Source: Myxococcota bacterium (GTDB lineage Bacteria; Myxococcota_A; UBA9160; UBA4427). Taken from it: a DNA stretch of 64,000 nt. Below are positions 32,351-60,428 of the stretch, one piece after another. Below the pieces are notes generated by a model. It saw only the letters and a program-made list of their open reading frames with translations. It did no database searches and was not told the DNA's origin. The stretch lies in the NCBI GenBank assembly GCA_965223565.1, contig CBDCWV010000016.1, positions 828,518 through 892,517 on the forward strand, written 5' to 3'. Position 1 is the first letter of the stretch, and every line of letters begins with the position of its first letter. The translations under genes and the position numbers were made by a program.

Positions 32351-32386
32351 GAGGCCCGGTACGGCATCCTCCGGACATCCTACGCG

Positions 32387-33946: not shown

Positions 33947-34034
33947 TTCCTCGCCTCCTCCGGCACGATCCGCACCCGGTATGCCCTTGCGCGACGCGCG
34001 AGCCCCTCGCCCACGAAGCGCCATCGAGACCCCG

Positions 34035-34063
34035 ATTCTACATAATTGGGAAAAAAATCCCAA
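34035..34063 (-). promoter_or_regulatory. Sigma70-like promoter for the DUF5666 operon inside a sharply AT-rich island
   Basis: The minus strand reads TTGGGA (34063-34058), a 17-nt spacer, then TAGAAT (34040-34035), preceded by an A-tract (34071-34066). This lies about 90 nt upstream of the ATG at 33946. The same bases form the hairpin AATTGGGA/TCCCAATT (34044-34065). Confidence 0.45.
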
Positions 34064-34215
34064 TTTTTTTTGGCTGGGAGCCGCCCATTCTTCCATACCA
34101 GGGCCAGCGGACGCCCTCGAGCTGGCGCCGCTCGGCCGCGTGACGACGCCTGCAGCCGGGACGCGGAGGGCCCGCGACCCGCGGCTCTACGCGCGGGATC
34201 GGCGCCGCCGGGCGC

Positions 34216-39486: not shown

Positions 39487-39593
39487 GCCGATCCAGGCCG
39501 GTCGAGGAACCCGAGAGGATGGATTCGGCACCATCCGGATGGACGATCGCGATGTCATCGATATCACGTACTCGGACAGGCTAACCTGCGCGA

Positions 39594-43620: not shown

Positions 43621-43883
43621 GGATGGCCCCCTTGGATTTCCGAGCGAGGTCCTTCTCGCTTGAGTCTCATGTCCGGATCACGTTGTCAAGCGCCGTAGCC
43701 GGCGCGAATGCACGCGCGCCGACGCACCCGGGTGGAGCCGCATTCTTCGCCTTCTACCCACCCGCGGACCGCAACGACAGCCGGGCTCACGTGGCGGCGC
43801 CGAACCGTCGCGTCGATCCCTCTCGGAGTCGACCCGGGTACCCCGCCCGCAGCCGTAGGCGGCCTGCTCCACGGGCGTTCGAT

Positions 43884-43907
43884 AATTGCATTCTCAGAAA
43901 ATGAGAG
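43884..43907 (+). promoter_or_regulatory. AT-rich bipartite motif/inverted repeat upstream of the TonB-dependent receptor
   Basis: AATTGCATTC (43884-43893), TCA, then GAAAATGAGAG (43897-43907). It contains the inverted repeat TTCTCA/TGAGAG. The first element ends 113 nt before the ATG at 44006. Both 10-mers recur at 47472-47491. Confidence 0.35.
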
Positions 43908-44005
43908 TAGCGTGTTACCGACCGGGTCGAGCACGGGCTACCGAACCATCCATCGCGCGACGACCGGATGGGACCCGCGTCCGGAGAGGGAGATTCGAGG
44001 GCCCG

Positions 44006-46291
44006 ATGCCGACTCTTCGCGCTGCGTGCCTAGCGTACGCGACATGCCTCGCGATCGATGCGACCTCCGCGTTGGCCCAGAGCGACGATTACGGGGACGG
44101 TGGCGACCCCTGGACCGGGATCGAAGAGTTCATCGTCACGGGAACGGGAAGCCTCAGCTCCCTCGCCCAGGCGACCTCGACGGCGGTCACCGCCTTCGAC
44201 GCCCTGGAGCTCGATCGCCGTGGAATCGCCGACATCGACACGCTCGGTCTGAACGTTCCAAACCTGTTCATCAGCAAGAACGGCGCGAGCCCGGTGGTGA
44301 CGATCCGCGGCATCGGCTCGACCTCCGGCGGCATCTCGGCCGACGAGGCCGTCGCCGTCCACGTCGACGGCGTCTACATGAAGCGCCCGCTCTTCCTCGC
44401 CGCCGAGTTCTTCGATCTCGAAGACCTCCAGGTCGCACGCGGTCCGCAGGGATTCCGAGGCGGAAAGAACGCGAACGGCGGATCCCTCAACTTCGTGTCC
44501 CGGAAGCCGACCGACGACTTCGCGGCCTCGGCGCAGGCGACCTTCGGCAACTACGGACAGAAGCGGATCACCGGATTCGTGAACGCTCCCATCGTCGAAG
44601 CCGTCTCGACAAGAGTCGCCTACTTCTACGAGAAGCGGGATCCTTACTCGACGCTCACGGGACGATTCGCAGGTGAGTTCGCCGAGGAGGCCGGCGACGA
44701 CGCGGACGATCTCGGTTTTCGCGCGCACGTCCGCGTCGCGCCGAGCGAGGGACTCGAGCTCTTGCTCTCGGGCAACTACTTCCAGCAAAAGGGCGCCGGG
44801 CCGGCCGTGAGCCTCGACGGCGACCTGAGTGCAGCACAGCTGAATCTCGGGGCGACGCCCCTCTCCTCGGACGTGCGAAGGGTGAGCCTCAACGCGCCGC
44901 CGGATCAGAACAACAAGATCTTTGGCGGCAGCGCGACCCTGTCCTGGGAGATCCCCTCTCCCAAATGGCTCGACGTCCTGGACCTGACGGCAATCGGCGC
45001 CTGGGAGCGTGTCCAGCGGTCCGACAAGCGCGACGGCGACCTGACGGATGTCGAGTTCCAGCGACAGGATCTGCAGGACGCCCAGGAGCAGGGAAGCGTC
45101 GAGGCCTTCGTCGACGTGGAAGCGGGCCAGCTGACGGGTCGGGCCGGCGTGTGGTTCTTCGACGAACGATTCGATACGGATCTCGCGGTCGACTGCCCGA
45201 TCTGCACCGGCGGCGGCGGGATCAACCGGACGCTCGACATCCGCACCGGCCTCGACGGCAGGAGCTACGGAGTCTACGGGGATGTCGAGTGGAGATTCGA
45301 CGAGAGCTGGACGCTGAAGCTCGGCGCCCGGTATTCCTGGGACGAGCGAAACGGCTTCGGCGAGCGCCTGAGTCGATTCGGTGGCTTGATCGGCCAGCCC
45401 TTCGGCTTCGGGGCCTCGGGCGACGAATGGGACGGTCTGACCGCGCGGGTGAACCTCGAGTGGGGCCCCACCGAGGACAACCTCTTCTATATCGAGCTGG
45501 CCCGCGGCTACCGATCGGGCGGACTCAATCTCGGCCTCGACAGCGACCCGAACGTCGGTGCCGACGGCTTCTCGAACATCGTCCTGCCGCCCTACGATCC
45601 GGAATACGTCTGGACCTACGAGGCGGGCACGAAGAACGAGTTCCTGGGCGGCGACCTGCGCATCAACGCGACGTTCTTCTTCATGGACTACACCGATCTA
45701 CAGGTCGCGCAGCCGGTGTTCGGCGTCGTCAAGACGGACAACGTCGCAGAGGTCCAGAATCTGGGCATCGAGATCGAGGGGCACTACTCGCCCATCCCCG
45801 ACGCGCGATTGGATTACACACTCTCCTGGCAGCACGCGCGGACCCGACGCGGTCTCGCCAACGATCCTATCCAGACGATCCGTGGCGTCGTGACTCGTGA
45901 CCTACTCCAGGACCTGGGCGGGAATCGCCTGCCCAACGCGCCGGATCTGACCGTGAAGCTCGGGCTGGAGTACGAGTTCCAAATCGGCCGCTACGGCACG
46001 CTCACGCCGCGCATCCAGTATTTCTGGCAGGACGAGACCTACTATCGTGTCTTCAACACCGATCTGGATCTCGACGAGTCCCGCCAGATTCTCGACGCCA
46101 AGCTGAGCTGGCAGCTGAGCGACGGAATGATCCGCGTCGTCCTGTTCGTGAACAACCTCCTCGACGAGGACATGATAAGAAGGCTCACGCCGATCATCGG
46201 ATTCGGGGTGCCTGGCAACACACCGCCGCAGCTCCAGCGTCAGAGCACGGCACCTCGCACGGTCGGCATCACGGTCGGCGTCAGCTACTGA
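44006..46291 (+). CDS. TonB-dependent receptor
   Basis: The signal peptide is MPTLRAACLAYATCLAIDATSALAQ. The plug region is IEEFIVTGT...VTIRGIG. A long beta-barrel follows, ending in the aromatic terminus ...TVGITVGVSY. Confidence 0.9.
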   Translation: MPTLRAACLAYATCLAIDATSALAQSDDYGDGGDPWTGIEEFIVTGTGSLSSLAQATSTAVTAFDALELDRRGIADIDTLGLNVPNLFISKNGASPVVTIRGIGSTSGGISADEAVAVHVDGVYMKRPLFLAAEFFDLEDLQVARGPQGFRGGKNANGGSLNFVSRKPTDDFAASAQATFGNYGQKRITGFVNAPIVEAVSTRVAYFYEKRDPYSTLTGRFAGEFAEEAGDDADDLGFRAHVRVAPSEGLELLLSGNYFQQKGAGPAVSLDGDLSAAQLNLGATPLSSDVRRVSLNAPPDQNNKIFGGSATLSWEIPSPKWLDVLDLTAIGAWERVQRSDKRDGDLTDVEFQRQDLQDAQEQGSVEAFVDVEAGQLTGRAGVWFFDERFDTDLAVDCPICTGGGGINRTLDIRTGLDGRSYGVYGDVEWRFDESWTLKLGARYSWDERNGFGERLSRFGGLIGQPFGFGASGDEWDGLTARVNLEWGPTEDNLFYIELARGYRSGGLNLGLDSDPNVGADGFSNIVLPPYDPEYVWTYEAGTKNEFLGGDLRINATFFFMDYTDLQVAQPVFGVVKTDNVAEVQNLGIEIEGHYSPIPDARLDYTLSWQHARTRRGLANDPIQTIRGVVTRDLLQDLGGNRLPNAPDLTVKLGLEYEFQIGRYGTLTPRIQYFWQDETYYRVFNTDLDLDESRQILDAKLSWQLSDGMIRVVLFVNNLLDEDMIRRLTPIIGFGVPGNTPPQLQRQSTAPRTVGITVGVSY

Positions 46292-46313
46292 GCCCGTCGC
46301 CTCGTCGTCCGCG

Positions 46314-47228
46314 CTAGAACCCGCGCCACTTCAGGCGGAAGCCCGCCGACACCGCAGCCGCGACCCGCTCGAAGTCGTAGTCGTAGCGCGTGAGCCAATT
46401 GGTTCCGAGCACGTCCAGCGAGCCGTCGAAGTCGCCGAAGAGGTAGGCGGCCTGCGCCTCGAGGAAGAGCGTGGGAATCCACGTCCCGCGCTCGCGCATC
46501 TCCGCTTCCAGGGCGAGTCGTCCGCCGACGCCGTGATGCGTGAGACTGTCGCTCGCGGTTCGCTCGAGCTGGACTCGCGGCAGTGGGCGCGGCCAGATCT
46601 CTTCCTCGAACACGCCGCGGACCGTGAGTGACTGCCCCACGTAGTCGACAGACGGTCGCACGACGAGGCTCCAACCCGGTTGTGGAGCGACGAACTCGAC
46701 GCCAACGCCCACGAACCAACGCCAATGGAAGCGGGCATCGGCGTAGATCACGGGCTCTTTGACGGTCTGCGGACCGATCCCCTCGGCGGAGGCGATCGTG
46801 ACCCGCCCGTCGAGCGGTACGTAGAGACCGGCATCCACGAAGACCCGCGGCGCGCCCGGAATCGACTCGAGCGTGGGACCGGCGAGCTGGGCAGAGAGCG
46901 CGATCGCCCCCTTGATCAGATCGCGTTTCGAGCTGTCGCCAAACGGCTCGAACGAAGGCTCGGGCGGCTGGCCGCGATCGGGCGGGTCGAAAAGTAGCGT
47001 CTCGCCGAATACCGACGCCTTCGCACGATGGCCGATCCCGGCGATCCCGAGACCCGCTGCGAGCGTGAGACGACCGCGCTCTTCGCGACGGAGGTTCGGT
47101 TCGTCCGTCGAGCTCGATTCGTTCGCGAACGCGACGTGGGGAAGCGTCGCGCACGCCGCCAACAGAGCGCGGAAGACCGCGCGGCGATGCCCATGAGCCT
47201 TCGATGTTCGACTGAGGTGGGACGGCAT
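46314..47228 (-). CDS. Outer-membrane beta-barrel protein (hypothetical)
   Basis: MPSHLSRTSKAHGHRRAVFRALLAACATLPHVAFA is the signal peptide. The body has an alternating beta-strand-like pattern. The C-terminus is ...SAGFRLKWRGF (terminal Phe). This is the frame of ORF 46314..47417. Confidence 0.65.
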   Translation of the reverse strand: MPSHLSRTSKAHGHRRAVFRALLAACATLPHVAFANESSSTDEPNLRREERGRLTLAAGLGIAGIGHRAKASVFGETLLFDPPDRGQPPEPSFEPFGDSSKRDLIKGAIALSAQLAGPTLESIPGAPRVFVDAGLYVPLDGRVTIASAEGIGPQTVKEPVIYADARFHWRWFVGVGVEFVAPQPGWSLVVRPSVDYVGQSLTVRGVFEEEIWPRPLPRVQLERTASDSLTHHGVGGRLALEAEMRERGTWIPTLFLEAQAAYLFGDFDGSLDVLGTNWLTRYDYDFERVAAAVSAGFRLKWRGF

Positions 47229-47471
47229 GCTTTCCCTGCGGGTATCCGCGCGCGATACCCCACACGATCTGTGATCCGCTCGCGACGAGACTAGATGATG
47301 GGTGCCCAGTTGGGAGAGCCCTCTGCTTCCCCGTGGAAAGCGCTTGCGGCCGAATCCCATCCACGGCCGCCCGCCCGGGGTGAATCGATCCGCCCCTAGG
47401 CCGCTCTCTGCGACCACAGAATCGTCGGCGGACGCGCGACGCCTCTAGAATCGCGGCGTAACGAACCTCTG

Positions 47472-47491
47472 GAAAATAGAGAATCGCATTC
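47472..47491 (+). promoter_or_regulatory. Second copy of the bipartite AT-rich motif, upstream of the PEP-CTERM gene
   Basis: GAAAATAGAG (47472-47481) is directly followed by AATCGCATTC (47482-47491). The motif ends 118 nt before the ATG at 47609. Confidence 0.3.
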
Positions 47492-47608
47492 CACTCTGCC
47501 GAGAAGCAAGTAGAAAAAAAGAGCCCATCTGCCACGGCTTTCGTGGTAGAAGATAGCTTTGGCGGCCCTCTCACCGGGGCGTCAAACCGGGACAGAGGGG
47601 ATTCATCG

Positions 47609-48964
47609 ATGCGATTCGGTCGACGAGATCGCGGTGCTACGGGCATTCTCGCCCGCATTCTTCTTTCTACTCTTGGTGTGGTTCTCGCGATGGCGCTTGC
47701 CGGCCTGGCCGCGAGCCCATCGATCGCCCAGGAGCGCGCGATCTATCGCCTCGACCTGACCGCCCAGATCGACGCCGCGGCGACCGGGTCCGCCGGCGGC
47801 AGCGCGATTCCGGACGGCTACCTCGTGATCGATCACGACGGCGCCGGCAACGTCGCCCTCCAGCTCGGCAGCTGGGTCTCCGGCGACGTCGACCTCACCT
47901 TCGGCAACGGCGAGACGACGAATGATCACTTCGCGGTCGCGCTGGCCGGCGCCACCGGCACGCTCACAGGCACCCTCGCGAGCGGAACGATCGTCTGGTC
48001 GACCGACGCCTACGTCTACCGCACGTTCGGCACCCGAACGTGTACCCAGGCCGCCGACGGCCAGCGCTGCTCGACCGATCCCGACATGGGCGCATCGGGC
48101 GCCGGCGTGTTCGTGATCCTCCAGCCCGGGATCACGAACACGACGCCGGCCGGCCCGACGGGTGGCCTGCCCCTCCCGGCGCCCGTCGCACTGCCGACGA
48201 TGGCGCTCAGCGGCTCGAGCCTGACGGCCTCCCTCGCCGACTTCGTAGATCTCGGGGCGGGCGTCTCGACAGACCTCACGATCGAGGCCACCCGGATCGA
48301 CACGCCCTCGGCCGAGAAGGTCATCATCGATCTCGACCCGACCACGAGCACCGAGATCATCACGGGCACACCCGTGATCAACACGACGCCTCTCGACGGA
48401 TTCGTCACCCTCGAGATCGACGGAACGGACGTGACGCTGCTCGGCTCCAGCTGGTTCTTCTCGGTAAACTGGCTCGACTGGGGCCCAACGCAGGTCGGCC
48501 CGGGAAGCTTCAACGGCCGCTACAGCATGTTCCAGCTCGCGGGCGGCTCCGGCACGCTCACGGGTACCTCCGCCTCCGGCTCGATCATCTGGGACGTCTT
48601 CTCGCCCTCGCGTCTCGCGCTCGAGACGAGCGGCAAGATGTGCACCCAGCCGGCGGACGATGGCCTCTGCACGTCGGATCCGGATTTCTTCCTGGTACTC
48701 GGCGATCCCGTGCCGGCCGGTCCGACCGTCGTTCGAGCGAATATGGTCGACTTCACGGACTTCACGCTCGGGGACCTGACGCTCTCGGCATCGAGCGTGA
48801 GCTCGACGGTCTTCGGCTTCAACGATGATGGCATCGCCGGCAATGGTGTCTTCAACAACCAGTTCGACGGCGACGTCGTTCCCGTCCCTGAGCCGGGTCT
48901 CTTCACCGGGCTCGCCGCCGGCCTGGTCGCCTGTGGCGCGCTCTCGCGCTCGCGACGGAGGTAG
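47609..48964 (+). CDS. PEP-CTERM-tagged secreted protein with an internal ~200-aa duplication
   Basis: The signal peptide is MRFGRRDRGATGILARILLSTLGVVLAMALAGLAASPSIAQ. The C-terminus VPVPEPGLFTGLAAGLVACGALSRSRRR has PEP, a TM segment and an Arg cluster. Confidence 0.8.
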   Translation: MRFGRRDRGATGILARILLSTLGVVLAMALAGLAASPSIAQERAIYRLDLTAQIDAAATGSAGGSAIPDGYLVIDHDGAGNVALQLGSWVSGDVDLTFGNGETTNDHFAVALAGATGTLTGTLASGTIVWSTDAYVYRTFGTRTCTQAADGQRCSTDPDMGASGAGVFVILQPGITNTTPAGPTGGLPLPAPVALPTMALSGSSLTASLADFVDLGAGVSTDLTIEATRIDTPSAEKVIIDLDPTTSTEIITGTPVINTTPLDGFVTLEIDGTDVTLLGSSWFFSVNWLDWGPTQVGPGSFNGRYSMFQLAGGSGTLTGTSASGSIIWDVFSPSRLALETSGKMCTQPADDGLCTSDPDFFLVLGDPVPAGPTVVRANMVDFTDFTLGDLTLSASSVSSTVFGFNDDGIAGNGVFNNQFDGDVVPVPEPGLFTGLAAGLVACGALSRSRRR

Positions 48965-49073
48965 GCTCGCGAGCTCCGATTTCCGCTGTCCTGTCACGGC
49001 GGAGCACGACGGGCGCGACCGCCCGGAATGAGTTGTTGGCAGGGATCCTATTCCAACCTGGGAGGGGAATGAG

Positions 49074-49799
49074 GTGATCAGAATGTTGCTGCACGAAAAG
49101 CTGACTGCGATGAAGCGAGGCCCGTTGCGGGCGGCTTCGATTCTGGCGATCGGGATGGTCCTGATCGCGAGCGGTGTCCACGCGAGCCCGGTGGGCCTGC
49201 AATATGACGTCAACTTCGACGACTTCGGTGTCGTTGGCGGCGCCGATCTCGATCAGACGGTGACCTTCGACGGGACGACGAAGACGATCGGGGACGTCAC
49301 GCTCAGCGAGCAGGCCCGCTTGCTGCCGGACGGAACCGAGCTGATCGAATTCAACATCTCCGCGAGCCAGCCGCTCGTCGATCTGTCCAGCAATACCCGA
49401 TCGGACTGGCGAATCGGCTTCGACAACATCGTCTACGGCGATGGCTTGACGAGACAACGAAGCGCGTTCATTCTCGGCTTCACGGCCGGCGGGAGCTACA
49501 TCACGGCGTCCCCGCTGACCCAATCGTTCGTGGTCGGCACCCATCCGATCGACGGCCATCCAATCATCTCGCTCATTCCCCAGCACCCGAGCCTCCCGGG
49601 TCCGGGCGACAACGTCGGGGCGAGCTCGGGCGGCTTCGCGACCTTCGACAGTCTGCTGGACATCTACATCGGGGATGCGACGCTCGCCGAGCAGATCGAC
49701 GGGATCCAGATCGCGATGGTCGTGCCGGAGCCGGGCACCGCGCTCCTGATGGGCCTCGGCCTGGCCGGACTCGCGGGCTCACGGAGGCGCCGCGCCTAG
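49074..49799 (+). CDS. PEP-CTERM-tagged secreted protein
   Basis: The C-terminus is VVPEPGTALLMGLGLAGLAGSRRRRA. The N-terminal signal is ...MKRGPLRAASILAIGMVLIASGVHA. Start options are GTG 49074, ATG 49083 and ATG 49110. Confidence 0.8.
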   Translation: MIRMLLHEKLTAMKRGPLRAASILAIGMVLIASGVHASPVGLQYDVNFDDFGVVGGADLDQTVTFDGTTKTIGDVTLSEQARLLPDGTELIEFNISASQPLVDLSSNTRSDWRIGFDNIVYGDGLTRQRSAFILGFTAGGSYITASPLTQSFVVGTHPIDGHPIISLIPQHPSLPGPGDNVGASSGGFATFDSLLDIYIGDATLAEQIDGIQIAMVVPEPGTALLMGLGLAGLAGSRRRRA

Positions 49800-49961
49800 A
49801 CGCGCTCGGGGATCGACACGCCCGTCCTCCGACGGGCCCCCTCGACGACGCGATGCGATGAAGGTTCGTAGGGCACTACGATCGCGTCGCCCGGCGTTCG
49901 TGCGCCCCCCATGCCCTGGCGGCACGGGGGGCGCGTCTGCTGGCGGGTTCGCCCCCCGGCC

Positions 49962-50031
49962 TCGCTGTTGGCGCGTACGATAACCCGCCTCGACGCACGT
50001 CGACCCGGGTTATCGTACGCGCCAACAGCGA
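49962..50031. repeat. Perfect inverted repeat, 26-bp arms with an 18-nt spacer, in the intergenic region
   Basis: The arm TCGCTGTTGGCGCGTACGATAACCCG (49962-49987) is the exact reverse complement of 50006-50031. The spacer cctcgacgcacgtcgacc contains the nested TCGACG-CA-CGTCGA. Confidence 0.9.
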
Positions 50032-50102
50032 TCGCTCCGCGAGACGCCGATTCCCCGAACGGTCGATCGGCTCGCACGGTGGAACGACGACGAGTCGAGA
50101 CC

Positions 50103-51296
50103 ATGACCCCCGACGCTCTCGAGACACGCGACTTCCCGCCGCCGCCTGCCGACCTCGCCGCGTACCGAGCCGCGCTCTCCGCCTGGCTCGATGCTCATCA
50201 CGACGCGCTCGCCCCGAAATACGATCCGCCGGGCGAGCTCGACCAGCACGTGGACCAGATGCAGCGTGTGAAGCGACTCCTTTGGGACGCGGGCTTCATG
50301 CAGTGCGGCTGGCCCACGCGCGTCGGCGGCCGCGGCGGCTCTCCGATGATGCGGATCGAGCTCGGCGCCCAGATCGCCGCGCGCGACTACGCCGACCCCG
50401 GACTCTTCTCGCTGATCGAGGTGCTCGCACCGACGGTGATCGACTTTGCGCCGACGGAGCTCGCGGCGGAGATGATCCCGCTGCTGCTCTCCGGCCGCGA
50501 GATGTGGTGTCAGGGCTTCTCGGAGCCCGGCTCGGGAAGCGACCTCGCGGCGCTCGCCTGCCGCGCGACGCCCAAGGAAAGCGACCGCGGGACCGCGACA
50601 ACCTGGGTCGTGAACGGCCAAAAGGTCTGGACCAGCCTCGCGCAGTTCTCCGAGCGCTGCGTTCTGCTCACACGCACCGGCACGCCCGAGTCCCGCCACC
50701 GCGGGATCACGGCCTTCTTCGTCGACATGGACACGCCCGGCATCTCGGTCGCGCCGCTCGAGATGATGAACGGCGAGCTCGAGTTCGCGGAGGTCTTCTT
50801 CGACGACGTAGAGGTCCCCGCGGATCGCATCTTCGGCGGCGTGAACGGCGGCTGGGCCGTCGCGATGAGCATCCTCCCCTACGAACGCTCCTCCTGCTTC
50901 TGGCAGCGCATCGGCTACCTCTACACCCGCCTGCAGAAGCTGGTCGAGCGGGCCCCCGACGACGATCGCGCAGCCGCGGCGCTCGGGGAGGCCTACGCCG
51001 AGCTCCACGCCCTGCGCTCCCGTTCGCGGGTGACCCAGCACAAGCTCGCGAACGAGGGCACGATCGGCGCCGACACGTCGATCGACAAGGTGCTGATCGC
51101 GTCGGCCGAGCAGAGCCTCTTCGATACGGTGCGCAGGCTGCTGCCCGGCGTGGTCGAGTTCGACGACTCGCCCGATGGGCAGAGCTGGCGCCTCGAATTC
51201 CTCTATTCGCGCGCGGCGTCGATCTACGGCGGCACGGGGGAGGTCCAGCGCGACATCATCTCGCGCCGCCTGCTCGATCTCGGAGATTTTCGATGA
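50103..51296 (+). CDS. Acyl-CoA dehydrogenase (alpha-type subunit of a split pair)
   Basis: MTPDALETRDFPPPP...WCQGFSEPGSGSDLAAL...GQKVWTSLAQFSERCVLLTRTG...IYGGTGEVQRDIISRRLL. The ATG is at 50103. The stop overlaps the next start (ATGA at 51293-51296). Confidence 0.9.
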   Translation: MTPDALETRDFPPPPADLAAYRAALSAWLDAHHDALAPKYDPPGELDQHVDQMQRVKRLLWDAGFMQCGWPTRVGGRGGSPMMRIELGAQIAARDYADPGLFSLIEVLAPTVIDFAPTELAAEMIPLLLSGREMWCQGFSEPGSGSDLAALACRATPKESDRGTATTWVVNGQKVWTSLAQFSERCVLLTRTGTPESRHRGITAFFVDMDTPGISVAPLEMMNGELEFAEVFFDDVEVPADRIFGGVNGGWAVAMSILPYERSSCFWQRIGYLYTRLQKLVERAPDDDRAAAALGEAYAELHALRSRSRVTQHKLANEGTIGADTSIDKVLIASAEQSLFDTVRRLLPGVVEFDDSPDGQSWRLEFLYSRAASIYGGTGEVQRDIISRRLLDLGDFR

Positions 51297-52267
51297 TCGA
51301 CGCCGAGGATCGCGCGCTACTCGAGAAATCCGTCGAGGCCGCCCTCGCCGACGCCGAGCCCGGCGGCGACGTGGATGCGCTGCTCGCCGAGCTCGACTGG
51401 GCCGACCTGCTCGACGCGGAGCCCGCGGACGCGATCGACATCGTCTTCCGCGCCCTCGGTTCGGTCGACGTCCGCTCGTCGGCCCTCGACGACGTGCTGC
51501 TCCACGCTCTCGGCATGCCGCCACGCGGCGATCTCGCGGTCGTCCTCCCTGCGTTCGGAACGTGGAGCCCACCCGGCCACGACGTGACCACGACGGGCGG
51601 TAGGATCGAAGCGAGCGGACTCGTGACAGGGCGCGGCGCGCGAGCGAGCGAGCTCCTCGTCGTGTGCGGCCCCGAAGACGCGCCCCGCGCCGCGACGATC
51701 GCGGCGGCCGATGCCGAATGCGCGGGTATCACGGGTGTCGACCCCGCCTTCGCCTATCAATCGTTCCGATTCGAAGGCCATCCGTCGGAAATCACGCCGC
51801 TCGAAGCCACCCGTTGGAGCGAAGCCGTCGCCCTCGCCCGCCGCGCCCTAGCCACCTGGATCGCAGGCGCGAACCGCACCATGCTCGAGATGGCGCGAAC
51901 CCACTCTCTCGAGCGTGAGCAATTCGGTGCACCGATCGCCCAGTTCCAGGCCGTTCGCCACCGCCTCTCCGAGGCGCTCGTCGCCGTCGAGTCGACCGAG
52001 GCCTGCCTCGTCTCCGCGCGCGACGAGCCGAACGAGCAGACCGCCGCGATGGCCAAGGCGCTCGCCTCGCGCAACGCACGGATCGTCGCGCGCCATTGCC
52101 AGCAGGTCCTCGCCGGAGTGGGCTTCACGACCGAGCACGCCTTCCACCGCTTCCTCAAGCGCGTGATGGCCCTCGAAGGCCTCCTCGGCACGGCGGACGC
52201 GATTCTGCTCGAGGTCGGCCGTCGGCTCCTCGAGACGCGACGGGCACCCACGTTGATCGAGCTCTAG
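51293..52267 (+). CDS. Acyl-CoA dehydrogenase-family protein (beta-type partner subunit)
   Basis: MIDAEDRALLEKSVEAALADAE... The C-terminal ACAD helical domain is ...TMLEMARTHSLEREQFGAPIAQFQAVRHRLSEALVAVESTEA...VLAGVGFTTEHAFHRFLKR. It lies in frame within ORF 50282..52267. Confidence 0.8.
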   Translation: MIDAEDRALLEKSVEAALADAEPGGDVDALLAELDWADLLDAEPADAIDIVFRALGSVDVRSSALDDVLLHALGMPPRGDLAVVLPAFGTWSPPGHDVTTTGGRIEASGLVTGRGARASELLVVCGPEDAPRAATIAAADAECAGITGVDPAFAYQSFRFEGHPSEITPLEATRWSEAVALARRALATWIAGANRTMLEMARTHSLEREQFGAPIAQFQAVRHRLSEALVAVESTEACLVSARDEPNEQTAAMAKALASRNARIVARHCQQVLAGVGFTTEHAFHRFLKRVMALEGLLGTADAILLEVGRRLLETRRAPTLIEL

Positions 52268-52292
52268 GAACCACCCCGCCACGGAGACCGAC

Positions 52293-54401
52293 ATGATCGG
52301 CACGAACCCTTCGCTCGAGGCACTCGCCGAGGCGTTCCAGGCCTGGATCGAAGAGCGCGCGGACGATCACCGTGCACTGAAGACGCTCCCCTACGAATAT
52401 GCCGAACGTTATGCGCCGCTCTGCAGACTACAGAGCGAGCTCTACGACGCGGGCTGGGCGCGCTACGGCTGGCCCGAGGAGTACGGAGGCCTCGGCGGCA
52501 CGGTGCTCCACCGTGCTCTCGTGCTCGACCTGCTCGCACGCAACGGCTACCCCGCGAGACATTTCTTCGAGCACCTCGAGATCCTGCCGCCCGCGCTCAG
52601 CCGCTTCGCGCGACCCGAGCTGGCGAAGGCGCTGATCCCGCCGACGCTACGCGGCGACGTGCTCTGGTGTCAGGGCTTCTCGGAGCCGACGGCGGGGTCC
52701 GACCTCGCGAATCTCAAGACGACGGCCCGACTTACGGACGAGGGCTATCGGCTCGACGGTCACAAGATCTGGACGACCTGGGCCGGCTGGTCGACCCACC
52801 TGCTGGTCCTCGCGCGAACCGGCAGCCAGGAGTCTCGCCATCGCGGCATCTCCGCCTTCGTGACGCCGCTCGACGTCCCGGGCCTCGAGGTGGGCAGGAT
52901 CCGCCAGTCGAACCAGCACGACGAGCTCGCAGAGGTCTTTCTCGACGACGTGCTCGTGCCGCAAGACAGTCGCATCGGCGAGGAGGGCGACGGCTGGGCG
53001 GTCGCCATGCACATCCTCGCGGGCGAGCGCGGAAGCTTCGCCTGGCTGCGCTCGAACGAGATCTTCGTGAAGCTCGAACGAATCGCGGCGCAGGCCGGGG
53101 CCGAGCACGACGGCCGGCTGGGCGAATCGCTTGCGCGTCTGCTGGCCGTCCGCTGTCGGACTCGCCCCGTCCTCGAGAAGCTCGCGCGCGGCGAGGCCCC
53201 GGGACCCGAGTCCTCGGTCACCAAGGCCGGTCTCATCGACACGGAACAGCAGTTCTACGACACCGTGCGAGCGATCCTCGCCGGGGGTCTCGACCTCGGT
53301 ACGAGTGAAGACATCCTCGAGTGGCAAGAGCGCTACCTCTATTCGCGCGCCGGGAGCATCTACGGCGGCGCGCGACCGATCCAGCTGAACGTGATCGCGA
53401 GGCAGCTCGTCGGAGGCGACGGCCAGATCGATGCGGACGCCAGCGAAGACGAAGCGATGATGCGTCGGAGCGTGGCGGAGGCGATCGAGAAGACGGAGCG
53501 CGGACGCGAAGCGCTCGACGGACTCGACTGGTGGTCCTTCGCGGCGACGCCCGAAGACGAGTTCGGTCGCACGGCGTTCAGCAGCTGGTTCGAAGAGCAG
53601 GGGCGCGCACTGGCAACGAGTCCGGCGCTCGCCGGCATCTGGGTCGCTCCGGTCGTCGCGAAGCTAGGCCTCGAGGCGGGCCGGGTCGCGGTGGGCTGGG
53701 CGGCGCGCGAGGGCGACGAGCGGAGGCTCGTCGTCGGCTTCGAGCCGGGCGAGACGACGCACCTGGTCGTCCCGGACGAGGGCGGATACCTCGTGCTCGC
53801 CGCCGATTCCGCCGTGGAGCAGCCTTCGAACGCGCTCGATTCGGGGCTCGTCCGCTGCTTGGTGGCGGGCACTTCGGCGGCGGAGTTCGTAGCGGTCGAT
53901 GCACGGGACCTCGCGCACGCCCGTGATCTGGCGATGATCGCCGCGGCGCTCGAGATCGGTGGTGCGGGTGTGGCACTTCTCGAGGCGGCAGTCCGACATA
54001 CGAAGGAGCGCGAGCAGTTCGGCCAGCCGCTCGCCGCCCTCCAGTCGGTCCAGCACCTCCACGCCGAGAGCCATATCGAAGTCTCGACCGCCCGCGCACT
54101 TTCCCGGGCCGCGCTCGAGGAGTGGAGCCAGGGCGACGCAAGCGCGATCGCGCGGTCGGCCAAGCTCGTCGCCGGCCGCACCGGTCTGCGCCTCGCACAA
54201 CGCGCGCTCCAGTGCTTCGGCGCGATCGGCTTCACCGACGAGCACGTGCACCACCTCTATTCCCGGCGCATGCACACGCTCGACGCGCTCCTCTCGACGT
54301 CGGATGCCCTCGCCGAGTCCCTCGGCGCTGAGCTCCGGAGGAGCGGACGCGCTCCGCGCGGCATCGAGATCTACCACTCGGCCACAGACGCCGCCGTCTG
54401 A
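52293..54401 (+). CDS. Fused alpha-beta acyl-CoA dehydrogenase (single 702-aa polypeptide)
   Basis: Residues 1 to ~376 parallel the alpha protein (WCQGFSEPTAGSDLANL, GHKIWTTWAGWSTHLLVLARTG, IYGGARPIQLNVIARQL). The linker is DGQIDADASEDEA. Residues from M389 onward (ATG ATG at 53457-53462) parallel the beta protein (ALLEAAVRHTKEREQFGQPLAALQSVQHLHAE..., FGAIGFTDEHVHHLYSRR). Confidence 0.85.
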   Translation: MIGTNPSLEALAEAFQAWIEERADDHRALKTLPYEYAERYAPLCRLQSELYDAGWARYGWPEEYGGLGGTVLHRALVLDLLARNGYPARHFFEHLEILPPALSRFARPELAKALIPPTLRGDVLWCQGFSEPTAGSDLANLKTTARLTDEGYRLDGHKIWTTWAGWSTHLLVLARTGSQESRHRGISAFVTPLDVPGLEVGRIRQSNQHDELAEVFLDDVLVPQDSRIGEEGDGWAVAMHILAGERGSFAWLRSNEIFVKLERIAAQAGAEHDGRLGESLARLLAVRCRTRPVLEKLARGEAPGPESSVTKAGLIDTEQQFYDTVRAILAGGLDLGTSEDILEWQERYLYSRAGSIYGGARPIQLNVIARQLVGGDGQIDADASEDEAMMRRSVAEAIEKTERGREALDGLDWWSFAATPEDEFGRTAFSSWFEEQGRALATSPALAGIWVAPVVAKLGLEAGRVAVGWAAREGDERRLVVGFEPGETTHLVVPDEGGYLVLAADSAVEQPSNALDSGLVRCLVAGTSAAEFVAVDARDLAHARDLAMIAAALEIGGAGVALLEAAVRHTKEREQFGQPLAALQSVQHLHAESHIEVSTARALSRAALEEWSQGDASAIARSAKLVAGRTGLRLAQRALQCFGAIGFTDEHVHHLYSRRMHTLDALLSTSDALAESLGAELRRSGRAPRGIEIYHSATDAAV

Positions 54402-54613
54402 GTCGGACGTGACCTTCGTTGCGAACGGCGCGACGAGGGGGTAGACAGGACTGAGATGATCCGGCGCACGCCGAATCTCGCTGGGCCGGGCTCGGGTGGG
54501 ACGCTCGGCTCGACGAGGCGGAACGCGATCGACGTTCGATTCGCGAGGAGTGGCCCGCTCGGAGAGCAACGGAGGCTTCGACGCCGGATCGGCGGTCGGA
54601 CGACCCAGAAATC

Positions 54614-55834
54614 ATGACCATCAAGGACAAGGCGGCCATCGTCGGGGTCGGCGCAACGCCCTACTACAGGCGGGGGCAATCGTATCCCGAAGACGAGCTC
54701 TCGATGGCCTGCACCGCAATCCTGTCGGCGCTCGAGGACGCTGGTCTCACGATCAAGGACCTGGACGGATTCTCGATCTACTCGAACAGCTGCGATCCCG
54801 CGACGGTCGGCGCGCAGCTCGGTGTTCCCGAGATCCGCTGGGCGACGACCACCACCTCGGGCGGTGGAGGCTGTGCAGGCGCGCTCGGTGTGGCGGCCGC
54901 CGCCGTACACGGGGGTCTCGCGAACTGCGTCGTCAGCCTGATGACGCTGCAGCAGCTGAACAAACGACTGGGTGGGTCGGCGGTCGGCGGCATGCTCGCC
55001 TATGCCATGACGTCGGATGCCGGGGGGAGCCCTTACGGCAGCAGCGGAATTCCTCCGTCGGCCGCATTCACCGCCAACAACGGTCTGCTCGCGCCGGGGC
55101 ACAGCTTCGCGCAGCTGGCCCAACGCCACATGTATCTCTACGGAACCCAACGCGAGCATTTTGCCGAGGTGTGTATCTCCACGCGTGAGAATGCGATGAA
55201 ACGACCGACGGCGCTCCGGCGAACCGAGCTGACGCTCGACGACTACTTCAATGCGCGCATGATCTCCGACCCACTCTGTCTGTTCGACTACACGATGGAG
55301 AGCGATGGGGCGGTCGCCGTCATCACGGTCTCGGCCCGCCGAGCCCGCGACCTGCGTCAACCGCCCGTCTACATCATGGGGTCGTGTCATGGCGGCTCGG
55401 GTCGCTGGGGTCCAGCGATCTTCCGCTACTTCCAGACACCCGACGATGAGTTCGCGTCCTCGGGGCATCGTCCCGTTGCGAAGCGGCTCTACGAGCTCGC
55501 CGGGGTCGGGCCGGCGGACGTCGATGTGGCCCTGCTCTACGACCACTTCTCGCCGATGGTGATCATGCAGCTCGAGGACTACGGGTTCTGTCCGATCGGG
55601 GAAGGCGGCCCCTTCGTCGCGGATGGCCACATCCGCTTCGGCGAGGGGTCGATTCCGGTGAATACGCACGGCGGCAATCTCTCGGAGGCGTACATCATCG
55701 GAATGACGCACGTGCGAGAGGCAGTCGAGCAGCTTCGCGGCACCGCCATCAACCAGGTGGCCGACGCCGAGATTGCGCTCGTCACCGGTGGGCCGGCGGG
55801 CCTGCCCGTGTCCGGCGCCCTGCTGCGACGTTAG
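54614..55834 (+). CDS. SCP-x/lipid-transfer-type thiolase-like protein
   Basis: MTIKDKAAIVGVGATPYYRRGQSYPEDELSMACTAILSALEDAGLTIKDLDG...VNTHGGNLSEAYIIGMTHVREAVEQLRG. The adjacent DUF35 gene matches the usual pairing. Confidence 0.85.
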   Translation: MTIKDKAAIVGVGATPYYRRGQSYPEDELSMACTAILSALEDAGLTIKDLDGFSIYSNSCDPATVGAQLGVPEIRWATTTTSGGGGCAGALGVAAAAVHGGLANCVVSLMTLQQLNKRLGGSAVGGMLAYAMTSDAGGSPYGSSGIPPSAAFTANNGLLAPGHSFAQLAQRHMYLYGTQREHFAEVCISTRENAMKRPTALRRTELTLDDYFNARMISDPLCLFDYTMESDGAVAVITVSARRARDLRQPPVYIMGSCHGGSGRWGPAIFRYFQTPDDEFASSGHRPVAKRLYELAGVGPADVDVALLYDHFSPMVIMQLEDYGFCPIGEGGPFVADGHIRFGEGSIPVNTHGGNLSEAYIIGMTHVREAVEQLRGTAINQVADAEIALVTGGPAGLPVSGALLRR

Positions 55835-55848
55835 TGGAGGATCGAATC

Positions 55849-56310
55849 ATGGCCGAGACAGAATCCTTCGGCGAAGTCGTCCAGGGAGTCTTCCCCTCGC
55901 TTCTCACGCAGACGCACGCGGACGAGGCGACCCAGCCCTTCTGGGACGCGGCACGCGAAGACCGGTTGATCGCGCCACGATGCGTGAATTGCGGGACGTT
56001 TCGACTACCGCCGAGCTCGTTCTGCTTCGAGTGTCAGCACCGCCGAGTCGAGTGGGTCGAGCTCCCGGGTACGGGCACGATCTACACCTTCACGGTCGTG
56101 CGACACCCGCTCCACCCGGATCTCGCGCCCGTTGTCCCCTACGCGTCGGGGGTCGTCGAGCTCGACGGGACCCAGGGCGCCGGCGCGCGCATGCTGGTGA
56201 ATATCATCGACTGCGACGTCGATTCGATCGCAATCGGCGATCCGGTCGAGATCGTCTGGGACCACGTCAACGACGAGATGACGACCCCGCGGTTCCGGCC
56301 GCGACGCTGA
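55849..56310 (+). CDS. Zn-ribbon/OB-fold protein (DUF35 family)
   Basis: CVNCGTFRLPPSSFCFECQH is a 4-Cys ribbon, followed by the OB-fold region WVELPGTGTIYTFTVVRHP. The ATG at 55849 has GGAGGA upstream. Confidence 0.85.
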   Translation: MAETESFGEVVQGVFPSLLTQTHADEATQPFWDAAREDRLIAPRCVNCGTFRLPPSSFCFECQHRRVEWVELPGTGTIYTFTVVRHPLHPDLAPVVPYASGVVELDGTQGAGARMLVNIIDCDVDSIAIGDPVEIVWDHVNDEMTTPRFRPRR

Positions 56311-56489
56311 GGGGGCCGACGGGCTGCTCTCTCGAGGAAATCGCCGCCAGGAGGCTACCTTTGGCCGTCGAGCCGGTCGGCGGCAGCCTCCAGAGTGCGG
56401 ACTACGGCTTCCCATCGCTCCAGGAGGCTCGATGAGTTTCGCCTCGCATGCGCCGCGCCGGCGGCATGCTTTCCAGGAGGAAAAGAGAC

Positions 56490-57620
56490 ATGGATATGAT
56501 CTGGGCGAACTCTGGAGACTCCCACTTTCTCGAGCCCGAGGATCTGTGGCGGGAGAACCTGCCGTCCCATCTCGCGGAGCTGATGCCGCGGAGCGAGAAG
56601 GACCCCGACGGTAAGTACGAGACGGTCCACGTCGATGGCCAGCGCTTTCGACGAAGGCTCCCGAGTCCCAAGCTCGCGGAGTTTCGGGAGTCGAGCAGTC
56701 GTGCGCCCGGTGCGCGCGACGCGGTCAAGCGGCTCGAAGATCTCGACCAGGAAGGCATCTGGGGAGAGGTCGTGTTTCCGTCCCTCGGCATGTGGAACGC
56801 GTCGTTTCGGACGCGCGAGGCGCTTCGAGAGGCGATCAGGGTCTCGAACGATTGGGCGCACTCGGAGATCATGAAGGCATCGCCACGCCTCGTCCCGACC
56901 GCGCAGGTCTCGCAGCTCTCGATCGACGATGCGGTTACGGAGGTCGAGCGCACGGCGGGCATGGGCTTCAAGGTCGTCTTTCTCCCGACGGCCCCGCCGC
57001 CCTACGTCAAGGACTACCACTACGACGACTGGGAGCCCTTCTGGACCACGTGTGAAGCGGCGAACATGGTCGTCGCCTTCCACATCGGCTCGGATCCGGT
57101 CGATCTCGCTGCCGGCGAGACCATCGGAATCACCTATCGCGGTCCGGGTGGAGCGGTACTCAACTACACGGAGACGACGTTCTCCGGGCAGCGGGCGACG
57201 ATGAAGATGGTGGCGTCGGGAGCGCTCGATCGACATCCGAGCCTCAAGATCCTGATCTCGGAGGGCGGCGCGACCTGGGTTCCCTTCCTCGGCGATCGCA
57301 TGACCGAGGGCTACCGCCAGCACCACATGATGGCGTTCCCGAAGCTGTCCCGATCGCCCAAGGAGATCCTGTACGAGCAGGTCTACGCCTCCTTCCAGCA
57401 CGACGAGACAGCGATCGCGGCCGTGACCGCCATGGGCTATCGAAACGTCATGTGGGGCAGCGACTATCCGCACATGGAGGGGACCTACGGGCACACCCAG
57501 GAGACGCTGCACGAACTCTTCGATGGTGTCGACGACGACACACGTTACCGGGTGACGGTGGGTGCGTTCCTCGATCTCTTCCCGGAGGTCGGAGCTCCGC
57601 CGGCACTCGAGGCGGCCTAG
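56490..57620 (+). CDS. Amidohydrolase-2 (ACMSD-like metal-dependent hydrolase/decarboxylase) family protein
   Basis: MDMIWANSGDSHFLEP..., VVFPS, AFHIGS and MWGSDYPHMEGTY. The SD AGGAGGA lies upstream of the ATG at 56490. Confidence 0.8.
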   Translation: MDMIWANSGDSHFLEPEDLWRENLPSHLAELMPRSEKDPDGKYETVHVDGQRFRRRLPSPKLAEFRESSSRAPGARDAVKRLEDLDQEGIWGEVVFPSLGMWNASFRTREALREAIRVSNDWAHSEIMKASPRLVPTAQVSQLSIDDAVTEVERTAGMGFKVVFLPTAPPPYVKDYHYDDWEPFWTTCEAANMVVAFHIGSDPVDLAAGETIGITYRGPGGAVLNYTETTFSGQRATMKMVASGALDRHPSLKILISEGGATWVPFLGDRMTEGYRQHHMMAFPKLSRSPKEILYEQVYASFQHDETAIAAVTAMGYRNVMWGSDYPHMEGTYGHTQETLHELFDGVDDDTRYRVTVGAFLDLFPEVGAPPALEAA

Positions 57621-57731
57621 CGCTGTCCGCGCGCCGAGACCCGCCGACCCAGCGGATGGAGACTGCCGGGGCGGCGGCCGAAGCCGCGCCCGGTCATGAT
57701 GGCGCGTGAGCGCACCGCAAATGGAGCCGCT

Positions 57732-60161
57732 TCAGCCGACGATCTTGCGCTCGCGGAGGTCGGCGATCGCCGAATCGGTGTAACCGAGCTCGGAGAGTAG
57801 GTCGTCGGTATGCGCGCCGGCGAGGACGCCGGGCTTCGCCTGGGTCGACGATCTCGAGAAGCGCGCGAGCGGCGCCAGCCGCGCATGGGCGTCGAAGGTC
57901 GGATGGACGACGTCGGCCAGGTAGCCCGAGGCCCGCCCGAATTCCTCGCTCAGCAGGAGATCTTCGATGCCCTCGGTTGCGACGGCGACGCAGCCGACGT
58001 CGGCCGCCAACATTCGCGCCTCCCATTCCTGCTTGCCGCGAGCGGCAAAGACGTCGGTCAGGATCTCGACCAGCGCCGCGTCGTGCTCGGTGCGTCGCTC
58101 CGGCGTCGCGAAGCGATCATCGGTCGCCAGGTCGACTTCGGATACAAGTGCCGCCACCAGCGCTTCCCACTCGTGCTCGGCCGGCGCGGCGAGGAAGATC
58201 CAGCCATCTTTCGCATCGTAGACGCGATAGAGAGCCGACAGGCCCCGCAGCTCCGCGTCCGGCGTGGGCGCCGCCGGAGCGCCCGGATACACGACGGCCT
58301 CGCCGGACATCGCGTGGACGTTGGTCCGGAGCATGGTCGCACTGATCTCTTGCCCACCGGCGCCCCTTGCCCGCGCAACCAGCCCGAGCGTCAACGCCGT
58401 CGCGACGCCCAGTGCCGCAAAGCCGTCCGCCTGGGCGTGAACGACGGTGCCCCCCAACGCGAGCAGTCTGGCACCAGACCGTACCTGCTCGAGATCGACC
58501 TCGTCTACAGCGTGAAGCAGTGGATCGATATTCGCGCGCGTGATACCCGCCGCCGCGCCGAAGCTCGGTGCGTAGGCCGGCCGATGCCCATCCGGTCCGC
58601 CATTGCCATAGCCCTGGGCATTGACATAGACGACGTCGGGGTTGAGGGCGCGGATTCGTTCGTACCCGAGCTCGAGGCGCTCCGCGACCCCTGCCCGAAA
58701 ACCCTGCATCACGACATCCGCACGCTTCGCGAGCGCGTGAACCAATTCGAGACCTTCGGGCGTCGAAAAGTCGATGCAGACGCTCTCCTTGCCCTGCATC
58801 ACCTTCGCGCCGCCCGCCTCGGGAAAGGGCACCATCGTTCGGATCGCATCACCCTCGAGCGGCTCGACCTTGATCACTCGGGCACCCAGATCGGACAGCA
58901 GCGTCGATCCGTAGGGCGCTGCGTAGAGTCCCGCGATCTCGAGGATCGTGATCCCCTCGAGCGGCATGCCAGTGAGCGTCGTCTCTGCGGAATCGGCCTG
59001 GGATCGCCCCTGCTGGCGGTCGCGCGTCGCGTCGTGTTCGCCGAGCCGGGGGGCCGAGCGCCCGAGCGAGGCGGGCGTTGCGGCCAGGTCGAAGAGCGCA
59101 CCGGGCTGGCGCACGACGCCCCGTTCGGCGTCTTCGATCTCGACGACGAAGCCTTCCGCGAGCAGTTGTCGGTGGTCCAGCACTTCCGGACCGATCCGAA
59201 ACTCCTCGGCGAAGACATTCGGATCCTCCTCGAAGATCGCCTGCCACTCGGCCAGGGTCTTGCTGCGAACCCTTTCGAGCATCATCGACCAGGCCGCCGA
59301 TCGCTTCGCTTTGTCTTCCAGGCGCGGAAAGCCTTTCCACTTCGGATCCGTGAACAGCTGCGCAAGCTCCAACGCCTCGATCAGCGCCTGGAAGAGCCGC
59401 GGGGCAACTTGTGCGAACTGCAGCCAGTGGCCGTCCTTGGTCAGGCCGACCAACAGGAAGAAGGAGAACGGTCCGGTCGGAATACCGTCCGCGTCGTAGT
59501 TCGGCACCCGCTGGAAACCGCCCGGCCACTTCTGGTCGACCAGATGCTCGAACCAGCCCCAGGTGTCGAGCGCCGTCAACGCCTGAGCCAGGCTCGTCTC
59601 GACGTGCTGGCCGAGCCCGCTCGATTCGCGTTCCAACAACGCCGCGAGCGTCGCGTGGAGCGCGACCTGAGAGGCGGAGAAGGAACACCAGGGGGCCGCC
59701 AGCATCGGTGGTCGGCCGAACGGGATGATTCGGGCGAAGCCCTGCATCAGGCCGATCTTCGCGGCGACGAGCCCTTCGTATCCCTTGATCCCCGAGGCCG
59801 GCCCGAGGCGGCCGAAGCCGCTGATCGACGTGTACACGAGCCGCGGATTCGCGGCCGCAAGCGCGTCGTATCCGAGCCCGCGACGCTCGAGCGTGCCCGG
59901 GCGGAAGGTCTCGATCAGGACGTCCGCCGACTCGGCGAGGTCGCGAACCGCCTGCTGACCCGCTCCCGTTCTCAGGTCTGCCTCGACGCTCTGCTTGCCG
60001 CGTGCCCACGCGGCGAAGGCCGGATGGGCACGCAGCGACGCCCCGCCCGGCGGCTCCACCCACAAGACCTCGGCACCGAAGTCCGCGAAGAGCTGGCTCA
60101 CCTGGGCGCCTACACGGTTCGGTGAGAGATCGACGATGCGAAGCCCGTCCAGTGCGCCCAC
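57732..60161 (-). CDS. Tandem-fused family-III (CaiB/BaiF-type) CoA-transferase, two complete domains in one chain
   Basis: Domain 1: LDGLRIVDLSPNRVGAQVSQLFADFGAEVLWVEPPGG...LIETFRPGTLERRGLGYDALAAANPRLVYTSISGFG. Domain 2: LEGITILEIAGLYAAPYGSTLLSDLGARVIKVEPLEGD...VMQGFRAGVAERLELGYERIRALNPDVVYVNAQGYG. No ATG lies near domain 1. The GTG at 60161 is proposed, but the start is uncertain. Confidence 0.8.
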   Translation of the reverse strand: MGALDGLRIVDLSPNRVGAQVSQLFADFGAEVLWVEPPGGASLRAHPAFAAWARGKQSVEADLRTGAGQQAVRDLAESADVLIETFRPGTLERRGLGYDALAAANPRLVYTSISGFGRLGPASGIKGYEGLVAAKIGLMQGFARIIPFGRPPMLAAPWCSFSASQVALHATLAALLERESSGLGQHVETSLAQALTALDTWGWFEHLVDQKWPGGFQRVPNYDADGIPTGPFSFFLLVGLTKDGHWLQFAQVAPRLFQALIEALELAQLFTDPKWKGFPRLEDKAKRSAAWSMMLERVRSKTLAEWQAIFEEDPNVFAEEFRIGPEVLDHRQLLAEGFVVEIEDAERGVVRQPGALFDLAATPASLGRSAPRLGEHDATRDRQQGRSQADSAETTLTGMPLEGITILEIAGLYAAPYGSTLLSDLGARVIKVEPLEGDAIRTMVPFPEAGGAKVMQGKESVCIDFSTPEGLELVHALAKRADVVMQGFRAGVAERLELGYERIRALNPDVVYVNAQGYGNGGPDGHRPAYAPSFGAAAGITRANIDPLLHAVDEVDLEQVRSGARLLALGGTVVHAQADGFAALGVATALTLGLVARARGAGGQEISATMLRTNVHAMSGEAVVYPGAPAAPTPDAELRGLSALYRVYDAKDGWIFLAAPAEHEWEALVAALVSEVDLATDDRFATPERRTEHDAALVEILTDVFAARGKQEWEARMLAADVGCVAVATEGIEDLLLSEEFGRASGYLADVVHPTFDAHARLAPLARFSRSSTQAKPGVLAGAHTDDLLSELGYTDSAIADLRERKIVG

Positions 60162-60428
60162 AGCCCTGCACCTCGGGTCCCGTTCATGGCTCGCGCGAAC
60201 GTGAACCCATCTGAAGCGTCGTGAGTGTGGACACTTCGGACTGGCCCTGCCACCCCTGCGTCGACGAAGCCAGTGGCGCACGCAAGAGCGCGAATTCGTC
60301 GCATTGGATCCCCTCCCCATGGAGATCGTCCGTTCATCCATCGCGTCGGCTTGCGAGCCAATCGAATCTCGAACGATTTCGATCGGTCGGCGCGGGGTGG
60401 ATCGGTAGATCGTGGCGGCTTCCGCACC

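Follow-up and report, generated by a model that had tools for sequence, protein, structure and literature searches.

A 70-nt palindrome between a PEP-CTERM gene and acyl-CoA dehydrogenase genes of a Myxococcota bacterium, possibly a recent template-switch duplication within an old spacer

How does a bacterial intergenic region come to hold an inverted repeat whose 26-nt arms pair without a mismatch, and do the length and perfection of such a stem speak of function or of youth? The question is raised by a 70-nt palindrome (49962-50031) lying between a gene for a PEP-CTERM-anchored secreted protein and a group of acyl-CoA dehydrogenase (ACAD) genes in a 64-kb stretch of DNA from a Myxococcota bacterium, the whole of which is called the window below.

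The palindrome and its setting

The left, ACAD-distal arm (49962-49987, 26 nt; TCGCTGTTGGCGCGTACGATAACCCG) is the exact reverse complement of the right, ACAD-proximal arm (50006-50031, 26 nt), and the 18-nt spacer between them (49988-50005; CCTCGACGCACGTCGACC) holds a nested 6-bp hairpin, TCGACG-CA-CGTCGA (49990-50003), with CC on both sides. Direct reading of the sequence thus bears out both the arms and the nested hairpin as described in the first-pass annotation of this DNA. A repeat finder renders the same structure as 34-nt arms, 94% complementary and 2 nt apart, in which the only mismatches are CC opposite CC; in the predicted fold a 26-bp outer stem and a 5-bp inner stem make up 31 bp, with CC/CC as a 2x2 internal loop. 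As RNA the palindrome folds at -60.6 kcal/mol, against -23.2 +/- 2.8 kcal/mol for shuffled versions (z -13.3), and it tops 12,786 sliding 70-nt segments of the window (-58.8, with a mean of -23.4, a standard deviation of 5.5 and a runner-up at -46.6), while as DNA it folds at -40 kcal/mol on either strand. Each arm on its own is unstructured, folding like its shuffles (-2.6 and -2.5 kcal/mol; z +0.4). A search of the window for the arm 26-mer with up to three mismatches returns two sites, the arms themselves, against none in 100 shuffles. The 70-nt palindrome is therefore real and far beyond chance.

Smaller repeats mark its boundaries. A 10-bp palindrome read from the sequence, AGCGATCGCT (50027-50036), straddles the right end, and the pentamer TCGCT occurs both at the start of the left arm (49962-49966) and directly after the right arm (50032-50036), a pair that could represent microhomology at a switch point or an ambiguous 5-bp direct repeat. 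The right arm includes the 9-mer GTTATCGTA (50009-50017), part of an AT-rich motif that is mirrored in the palindrome as TACGATAAC ... GTTATCGTA, 33 bp apart from centre to centre; no other AT-rich patches are seen within the 150 nt that precede the ACAD gene. Across the site, GC content stays level. The bases after the palindrome (TCGCTCCGCG) form no U-tract, as had been noted before, and a terminator and promoter scan of the region scored neither a terminator nor a sigma-70-like promoter. Sigma-70 and sigma-54 promoters in the arms were considered as candidates and rejected, the scan being negative and inspection by hand unconvincing.

The palindrome starts 163 nt after the end of the PEP-CTERM ORF (49799) and ends 72 nt before the ACAD start codon (ATG at 50103), both offsets having been given correctly in the first-pass annotation. 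The upstream gene (49074-49799, plus strand; Pfam PF07589) is the last of a four-gene block (43886-49799) comprising a TonB-dependent receptor, two unknowns and the PEP-CTERM protein (PF07589, PF00593 and PF07715 across the block). Downstream lie three ACAD genes (50103-54401), the first of which (50103-51296, plus strand; PF02770, PF00441) is read in frame from the ATG at 50103 into a 397-aa product that equals P0001 and has the same length as P0002. Pfam searches with nearly all substantial ORFs of the window recovered secreted/PEP-CTERM proteins and enzymes of catabolism, namely two P450s, TauD, a luciferase-like monooxygenase, a sulfatase, the ACADs, a thiolase-like protein and a family III CoA-transferase; no transposase, integrase, recombinase, telomere resolvase, RAYT or DNA-binding regulator was found among the ORFs scanned with Pfam in the 64 kb.

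The region 50103-60341 encodes an ACAD pair (397 aa and approximately 324 aa, the latter with the C-terminal domain only) and a fused double ACAD of approximately 700 aa, accompanied by a thiolase-like protein, an amidohydrolase and a CoA-transferase. The ACADs of relatives (L002, L061 and L003-L007) are found beside a sulfatase, a luciferase-like monooxygenase, TauD, a P450 and ChsH2-type proteins, and the neighborhood resembles clusters for the degradation of steroid or sulfated-lipid side chains. The gene order 3' of the ACADs in the window differs from that in L002 and L061.

Several other repeats and folds are present elsewhere in the window. A perfect 24-bp palindrome, AGATAGTGTCGATCGACACTATCT (22945-22968), occupies the short spacer before an ORF that has no Pfam match (22976-24088), and looks like a classical operator of a dimeric regulator, for which it is a candidate. 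An inverted repeat with 24-nt arms that are 88% complementary (48096-48152; about -46.6 kcal/mol) lies within the coding sequence of the 451/473-aa protein of the four-gene block, which has no Pfam match and a homologue of which carries the NCBI name PEP-CTERM sorting domain-containing. The next strongest folds of the window are at 39071-39140 (-46.6 kcal/mol), between a P450 gene (37448-38983, minus strand) and the ORF 39585-40304, and at 17616-17685 (-44.4 kcal/mol), between convergent ORFs, where it may be a bidirectional terminator. On the minus strand, 30406-34186 holds two adjacent paralogous genes with four DUF5666 repeats each.

The spacer in related genomes

Relatives of the locus were sought by a word-indexed search of 5.8 billion proteins, in which the nearest ACAD homologue outside the source came from a Myxococcota metagenome-assembled genome, L002 (87% identity), and the third of the best 120 matches was already down to 79%. 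The ACAD of L061 (85%) is absent from those best 120 matches, as a word-indexed search can miss close relatives. A search with the 473-aa protein of the four-gene block returned three other genomes only, and the block is common to L002, L061/L062 and L063, L061 and L062 being one genome recovered twice. The closest relatives are thus 85-87% identical in the ACAD protein, the searches of the 5.8 billion proteins having yielded none nearer, and the window, L002 and L061 are roughly equidistant from one another.

In L061/L062 the order is that of the window: the PEP-CTERM gene, a 466-nt spacer and three ACAD genes. In L002 the four-gene block is inverted relative to the ACAD genes (43881-49768 in the window corresponding to 3899-9909 in L002). 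The shared tandem order, taken together with the equidistance of the three genomes, argues that the adjacency of the PEP-CTERM and ACAD genes is old and that L002 is the rearranged genome. A fresh inversion junction in the window, which the comparison with L002 had at first suggested, was accordingly dropped, as the same tandem order is found in L061/L062. The synteny comparison that had been proposed in the first-pass annotation likewise speaks against an insertion boundary at the palindrome, since the same genes flank the spacer on both sides in L061/L062 and the GC content does not change; the spacer as such is old.

Two noncoding elements of this locus are conserved across these genomes. 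The first, overlooked in the first-pass annotation, is a hairpin downstream of the PEP-CTERM gene (49902-49934, plus strand; 14-bp stem, 5-nt loop, -32 kcal/mol), which ends 27 nt before the palindrome. It aligns with L061 4459-4491, a perfect 14-bp hairpin that is followed by TTTGTTTGG and scored as a canonical terminator, and with a minus-strand hairpin of L002 (3751-3785) that is followed by the U-run UUUUGCGUUU. When the tails are aligned, the window (49935-49945) reads UCUGCUGG against UUUGUUUGG in L061 (4492-4500); across the three genomes the tails read UCUGCUGG in the window, UUUGUUUG in L061 and UUUUGCGUUU in L002. Judged by these alignments, 49902-49934 is the real terminator of the PEP-CTERM gene, the U-tract of which has decayed in the lineage of the window. 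Canonical hairpin-plus-U terminators show no enrichment in the window between 20 and 60 kb, and non-canonical transcript ends may therefore be common in this genome.

The second is a noncoding motif of approximately 35 nt that precedes the gene for the TonB-dependent receptor, (GATAA)TTGCATTCTC-GAAAA-GAGAGTAGCGTGTT, which occurs at 43876-43917 in the window, 9873-9909 (minus strand) in L002 and 1-31 in L063. Over 37 nt it is approximately 92% conserved among the three genomes, whose proteins share only approximately 75-85% identity. The motif probably serves the receptor gene as an operator, promoter or leader, and a Fur-like or ECF-type identity would be a guess.

The conservation of the terminator and of this motif makes the absence of the palindrome from the relatives informative. 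It is absent from the orthologous 466-nt spacer of L061/L062, which shows no unusual structure (z +0.78 in L061), and from the spacer of L002, and no comparable palindrome was found at the loci of the relatives. The relatives check raised by the first-pass annotation hence shows no conservation of the palindrome as such in L061/L062 or L002, and what it shares with L061 comes down to a single 9-mer. On these comparisons, the palindrome is a novelty of the lineage of the window.

That 9-mer, GTTATCGTA, is the one trace of ancestry that we could recover, and lies inside the right arm. It is exactly shared between the window and L061 at matching offsets from the ACAD start codon (-94 and -95, respectively); 52 of 5000 dinucleotide shuffles did equally well, giving a p of about 0.01 for a comparison made post hoc. 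The pentamer TTATC is the only 5-mer at a like offset (-93 to -96) in all three genomes (equalled by 36 of 2000 shuffles), and the L002 copy forms part of the inverted TonB-upstream motif. The position of that copy, at -96, hints that the inversion was joined at a CGATAA/TTATCG microhomology. A 16-nt anchored test gave a p of about 0.09, unanchored local alignments of the spacers were not above shuffles, and alignment yielded no counterpart of the left arm in the orthologous L061 spacer. A likeness of the right arm to the upstream region of L002, picked out by eye, was rejected as not above shuffles. The inner part of the right arm, GTTATCGTA, is probably ancestral upstream sequence. By this modest evidence, a single 9-mer, the comparison points to the right arm as the resident sequence and to the left arm as its inverted copy.

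Alternative origins and functions

We tentatively favor the view that a template switch during replication recently produced the palindrome as an inverted duplication within the old spacer, over several other readings. The alternative that survives best, although we consider it unlikely, is that the palindrome belongs to a species-specific mobile element of low copy number, such as a minimal MITE, a REPIN-like element or an IS200/IS605-type hairpin, with the other copies lying outside the 64-kb window. With two 26-nt inverted ends around a short core, it would match REP doublets or the smallest MITEs in size and shape, it is intergenic and downstream of a gene, where REPs mostly occur according to PMC3733652, and the TCGCT pair (49962-49966 and 50032-50036) might be a target duplication of 5 bp. 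Against this, searches of the 64 kb with up to three mismatches, with blastn-short or at relaxed stringency turned up neither a further copy nor a fragment, in agreement with the single copy reported earlier, and no transposase or RAYT gene is present among the window ORFs scanned.

Wider searches left the palindrome an orphan across all the collections covered (GTDB, JGI metagenomes, IMG/VR, plasmids, phages and Rfam). A 20-mer of the arm has no exact match in 185,579 GTDB species genomes or in IMG/VR, and in the JGI metagenomes it returned one chance match, which falls in coding sequence on an unrelated contig of low GC. BLAST of 49950-50045 retrieved nothing from plasmids and, from phages, only matches of E >= 0.07 in helicase genes of Xanthomonas phages. 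A gapped pattern for the AT-rich core, CGATAACCCG-N8-30-CGGGTTATCG, detected 53 unrelated hairpins from scattered phyla in the GTDB species genomes, none of which shares the outer arms. The loose pattern also brought up by chance a clearly conserved, hairpin-containing motif that is unrelated to the palindrome, CGATAACCCGAATGAGAC-N-GTCTCATTCGGGTTATCG followed by GTCTCATGAG, in five species of Streptomycetaceae (L018, L022, L037, L054 and L058; Streptomyces/Streptoverticillium). As families of small mobile palindromes are often species-specific, absence from other species does not decide the matter.

The structure itself says more. Like REPs and REPINs, the palindrome is a GC-rich intergenic repeat downstream of a gene, with the length of a REP doublet and the potential to form an RNA hairpin. 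In REP palindromes, as described in PMC3733652, one end carries an unpaired tag, GTAG or CGTC. No such tag is seen here: the flanks read ...CCGGCC and TCGCTCC..., and CGTC is present only in the central hairpin. The palindrome further differs from REPs in that it is not repetitive in the data searched, its arms are not themselves hairpins of 20-40 bp and the window has no RAYT gene; with arms that are unstructured alone, it is not a REP doublet. With bacterial MITEs of the Correia or ERIC type it shares a lack of coding capacity and terminal inverted repeats of approximately 26 nt, which are trivial for any palindrome. However, most MITEs exceed its 70 nt, and it is single-copy in the window and has neither a clear target duplication nor a parent IS with matching ends: reading TCGCT as the duplication makes the inverted ends asymmetric, and no direct repeat lies outside 49962-50031. 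Moreover, an inserted element would not share a 9-mer with the L061 spacer at the same offset. The REP- or MITE-like identity entertained in the first-pass annotation accordingly finds no support in copy number within the 64 kb, relatives in the collections, end tags or a transposase/RAYT gene.

A second alternative, to which we give rather less credence, is that the palindrome is an RNA element under selection, namely a back-up terminator or insulator, an RNase III site or a 3'-end stabilizer, the selection having followed the decay of the upstream U-tract in this lineage. The stem is extremely stable on either strand and lies 27 nt after the conserved terminator with the decayed tail UCUGCUGG; clusters of hairpins have, moreover, been proposed as terminators in PMC8355165. 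Like intrinsic (Rho-independent) terminators, it is a GC-rich stem-loop after a gene. It is unlike them in having a 31-bp stem, compared to 14 bp in the neighboring conserved terminator, in being followed by UCGCUCCGCG instead of a U-tract of 7-9 nt, and in not being conserved. In the GC-rich lineage tested in PMC3993855, RNA polymerase needed the U-tract. The 26 perfect pairs also exceed any known requirement, and neither L002 nor the orthologous L061 spacer has the palindrome. It belongs to no Rfam family: at E <= 10 only generic long-hairpin miRNA precursors were matched, with 34.6 bits against a threshold of 268 bits. What was said earlier about arms of unusual length and perfection stands. 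The stable RNA that had been offered as an option would, as a matter of physics, form in any transcript of the region, but the orthologous spacer of L061 does not share it.

We regard as improbable a third alternative, in which the palindrome is a DNA-level protein site, be it a bidirectional promoter, a large operator with dyad symmetry, or a site at which a site-specific recombinase or a hairpin-forming enzyme acts. Its perfect dyad symmetry around a non-palindromic central CA would suit such a role, as would the mirrored TACGATAAC and GTTATCGTA, about three helical turns apart, and the inversion breakpoint of L002 falls in the same spacer. However, the 64 kb hold no gene for a regulator, recombinase, integrase or telomere resolvase, no sigma-70-like promoter was scored, and at 70 bp the palindrome is far above known operators in size. 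Neither is the dyad conserved in L061/L062 or L002, only the 9-mer being shared with L061. The large operator suggested in the first-pass annotation has against it the lack of conservation in the relatives and of a nearby regulator gene; the recombination or integration site it also listed is weakened by the age of the junction in L061/L062 and the want of a recombinase gene, although the L002 breakpoint in this spacer still speaks for it. A potential att-type core, a 12-nt match (GTCGACCCGGGT) between the palindrome and 43828-43839 at the other end of the block, was rejected, as a match of this kind occurs in approximately 8% of shuffles or other windows.

Finally, an assembly or sequencing artefact, a concern with a 962,732-bp contig from the metagenome-assembled genome of an uncultured organism, is very unlikely: the palindrome is internal to this long contig, is short and presumably unlike common sequencing adapters, and its flanks are conserved and correctly oriented (the terminator at 27 nt and the ACAD start at 72 nt), whereas fold-back artefacts are usually of kilobase scale and lie at contig ends.

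A proposed template-switch inverted duplication

We posit that a small pre-existing hairpin, TCGACG-CA-CGTCGA, could have nucleated a template switch during replication, possibly helped by AGCGATCGCT at the right boundary, and that the switch would have copied approximately 26 nt of 50006-50031 as the reverse complement across the hairpin, yielding the left arm (49962-49987) in one event. Template switching can make a perfect stem in a single mutation (PMC8794818), and the palindrome resembles the template-switch (quasipalindrome-type) mutations described there and in PMC5941160 and PMC13100816 in being a perfect reverse-complement copy around a short hairpin. It further resembles them in that one arm is apparently ancestral while the other is absent from relatives, and in that a long stem would result from a single event. 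We propose that the arms are still perfect on account of a recent event rather than selection on the 26 pairs.

Certain features fit less well. The 26-nt copy is long, and the inner hairpin is flanked by the CC/CC mismatch; a simple fold-back from the central hairpin would leave no such mismatch beside it. The orthology of the right arm comes down to one 9-mer (p about 0.01, post hoc), with spacer alignments that are not significant. Further copies may lie in the approximately 900 kb of the contig beyond the window or elsewhere in the genome. With the closest relatives only 85-87% identical in the ACAD protein, the ancestral state and the switch points cannot be reconstructed.

Should the palindrome have arisen in this way, it might nevertheless have effects. 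RNA reading through from the PEP-CTERM gene would, on physical grounds, fold into the 31-bp stem at -60 kcal/mol. Lacking a U-tract, this stem should not act as an efficient intrinsic terminator, but it could pause the polymerase, block 3' exonucleases or attract RNase III, and might thereby separate the two transcription units. The same event would have produced a mirror copy of the sole AT-rich motif in the ACAD upstream region (TACGATAAC ... GTTATCGTA). This allows a more elaborate version, which we consider a long shot: a single switch that mirrored a conserved AT-rich motif could have created either a symmetric operator with two sites or a bidirectional promoter, together with a fragile spot prone to cruciform formation, the 6-kb block inversion of L002 having broken the same spacer. 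If true, one short inverted repeat would have seeded both a new promoter and a rearrangement at this locus.

Returning to the simpler template-switch duplication, the palindrome is ordinary in kind: it defines no new class of element and nothing about it suggests a new mechanism. Its practical value is chiefly negative, in that labels such as REP, MITE, riboswitch or att site are not called for in its annotation. If the proposed origin is true, it holds a caution, in that the perfection and length of a stem would signal its youth and not its function. It would also illustrate, cleanly and in nature, how a bacterial intergenic region can gain a very long perfect stem in one step, and could possibly serve as a small case study of template-switch mutagenesis in GC-rich bacteria.
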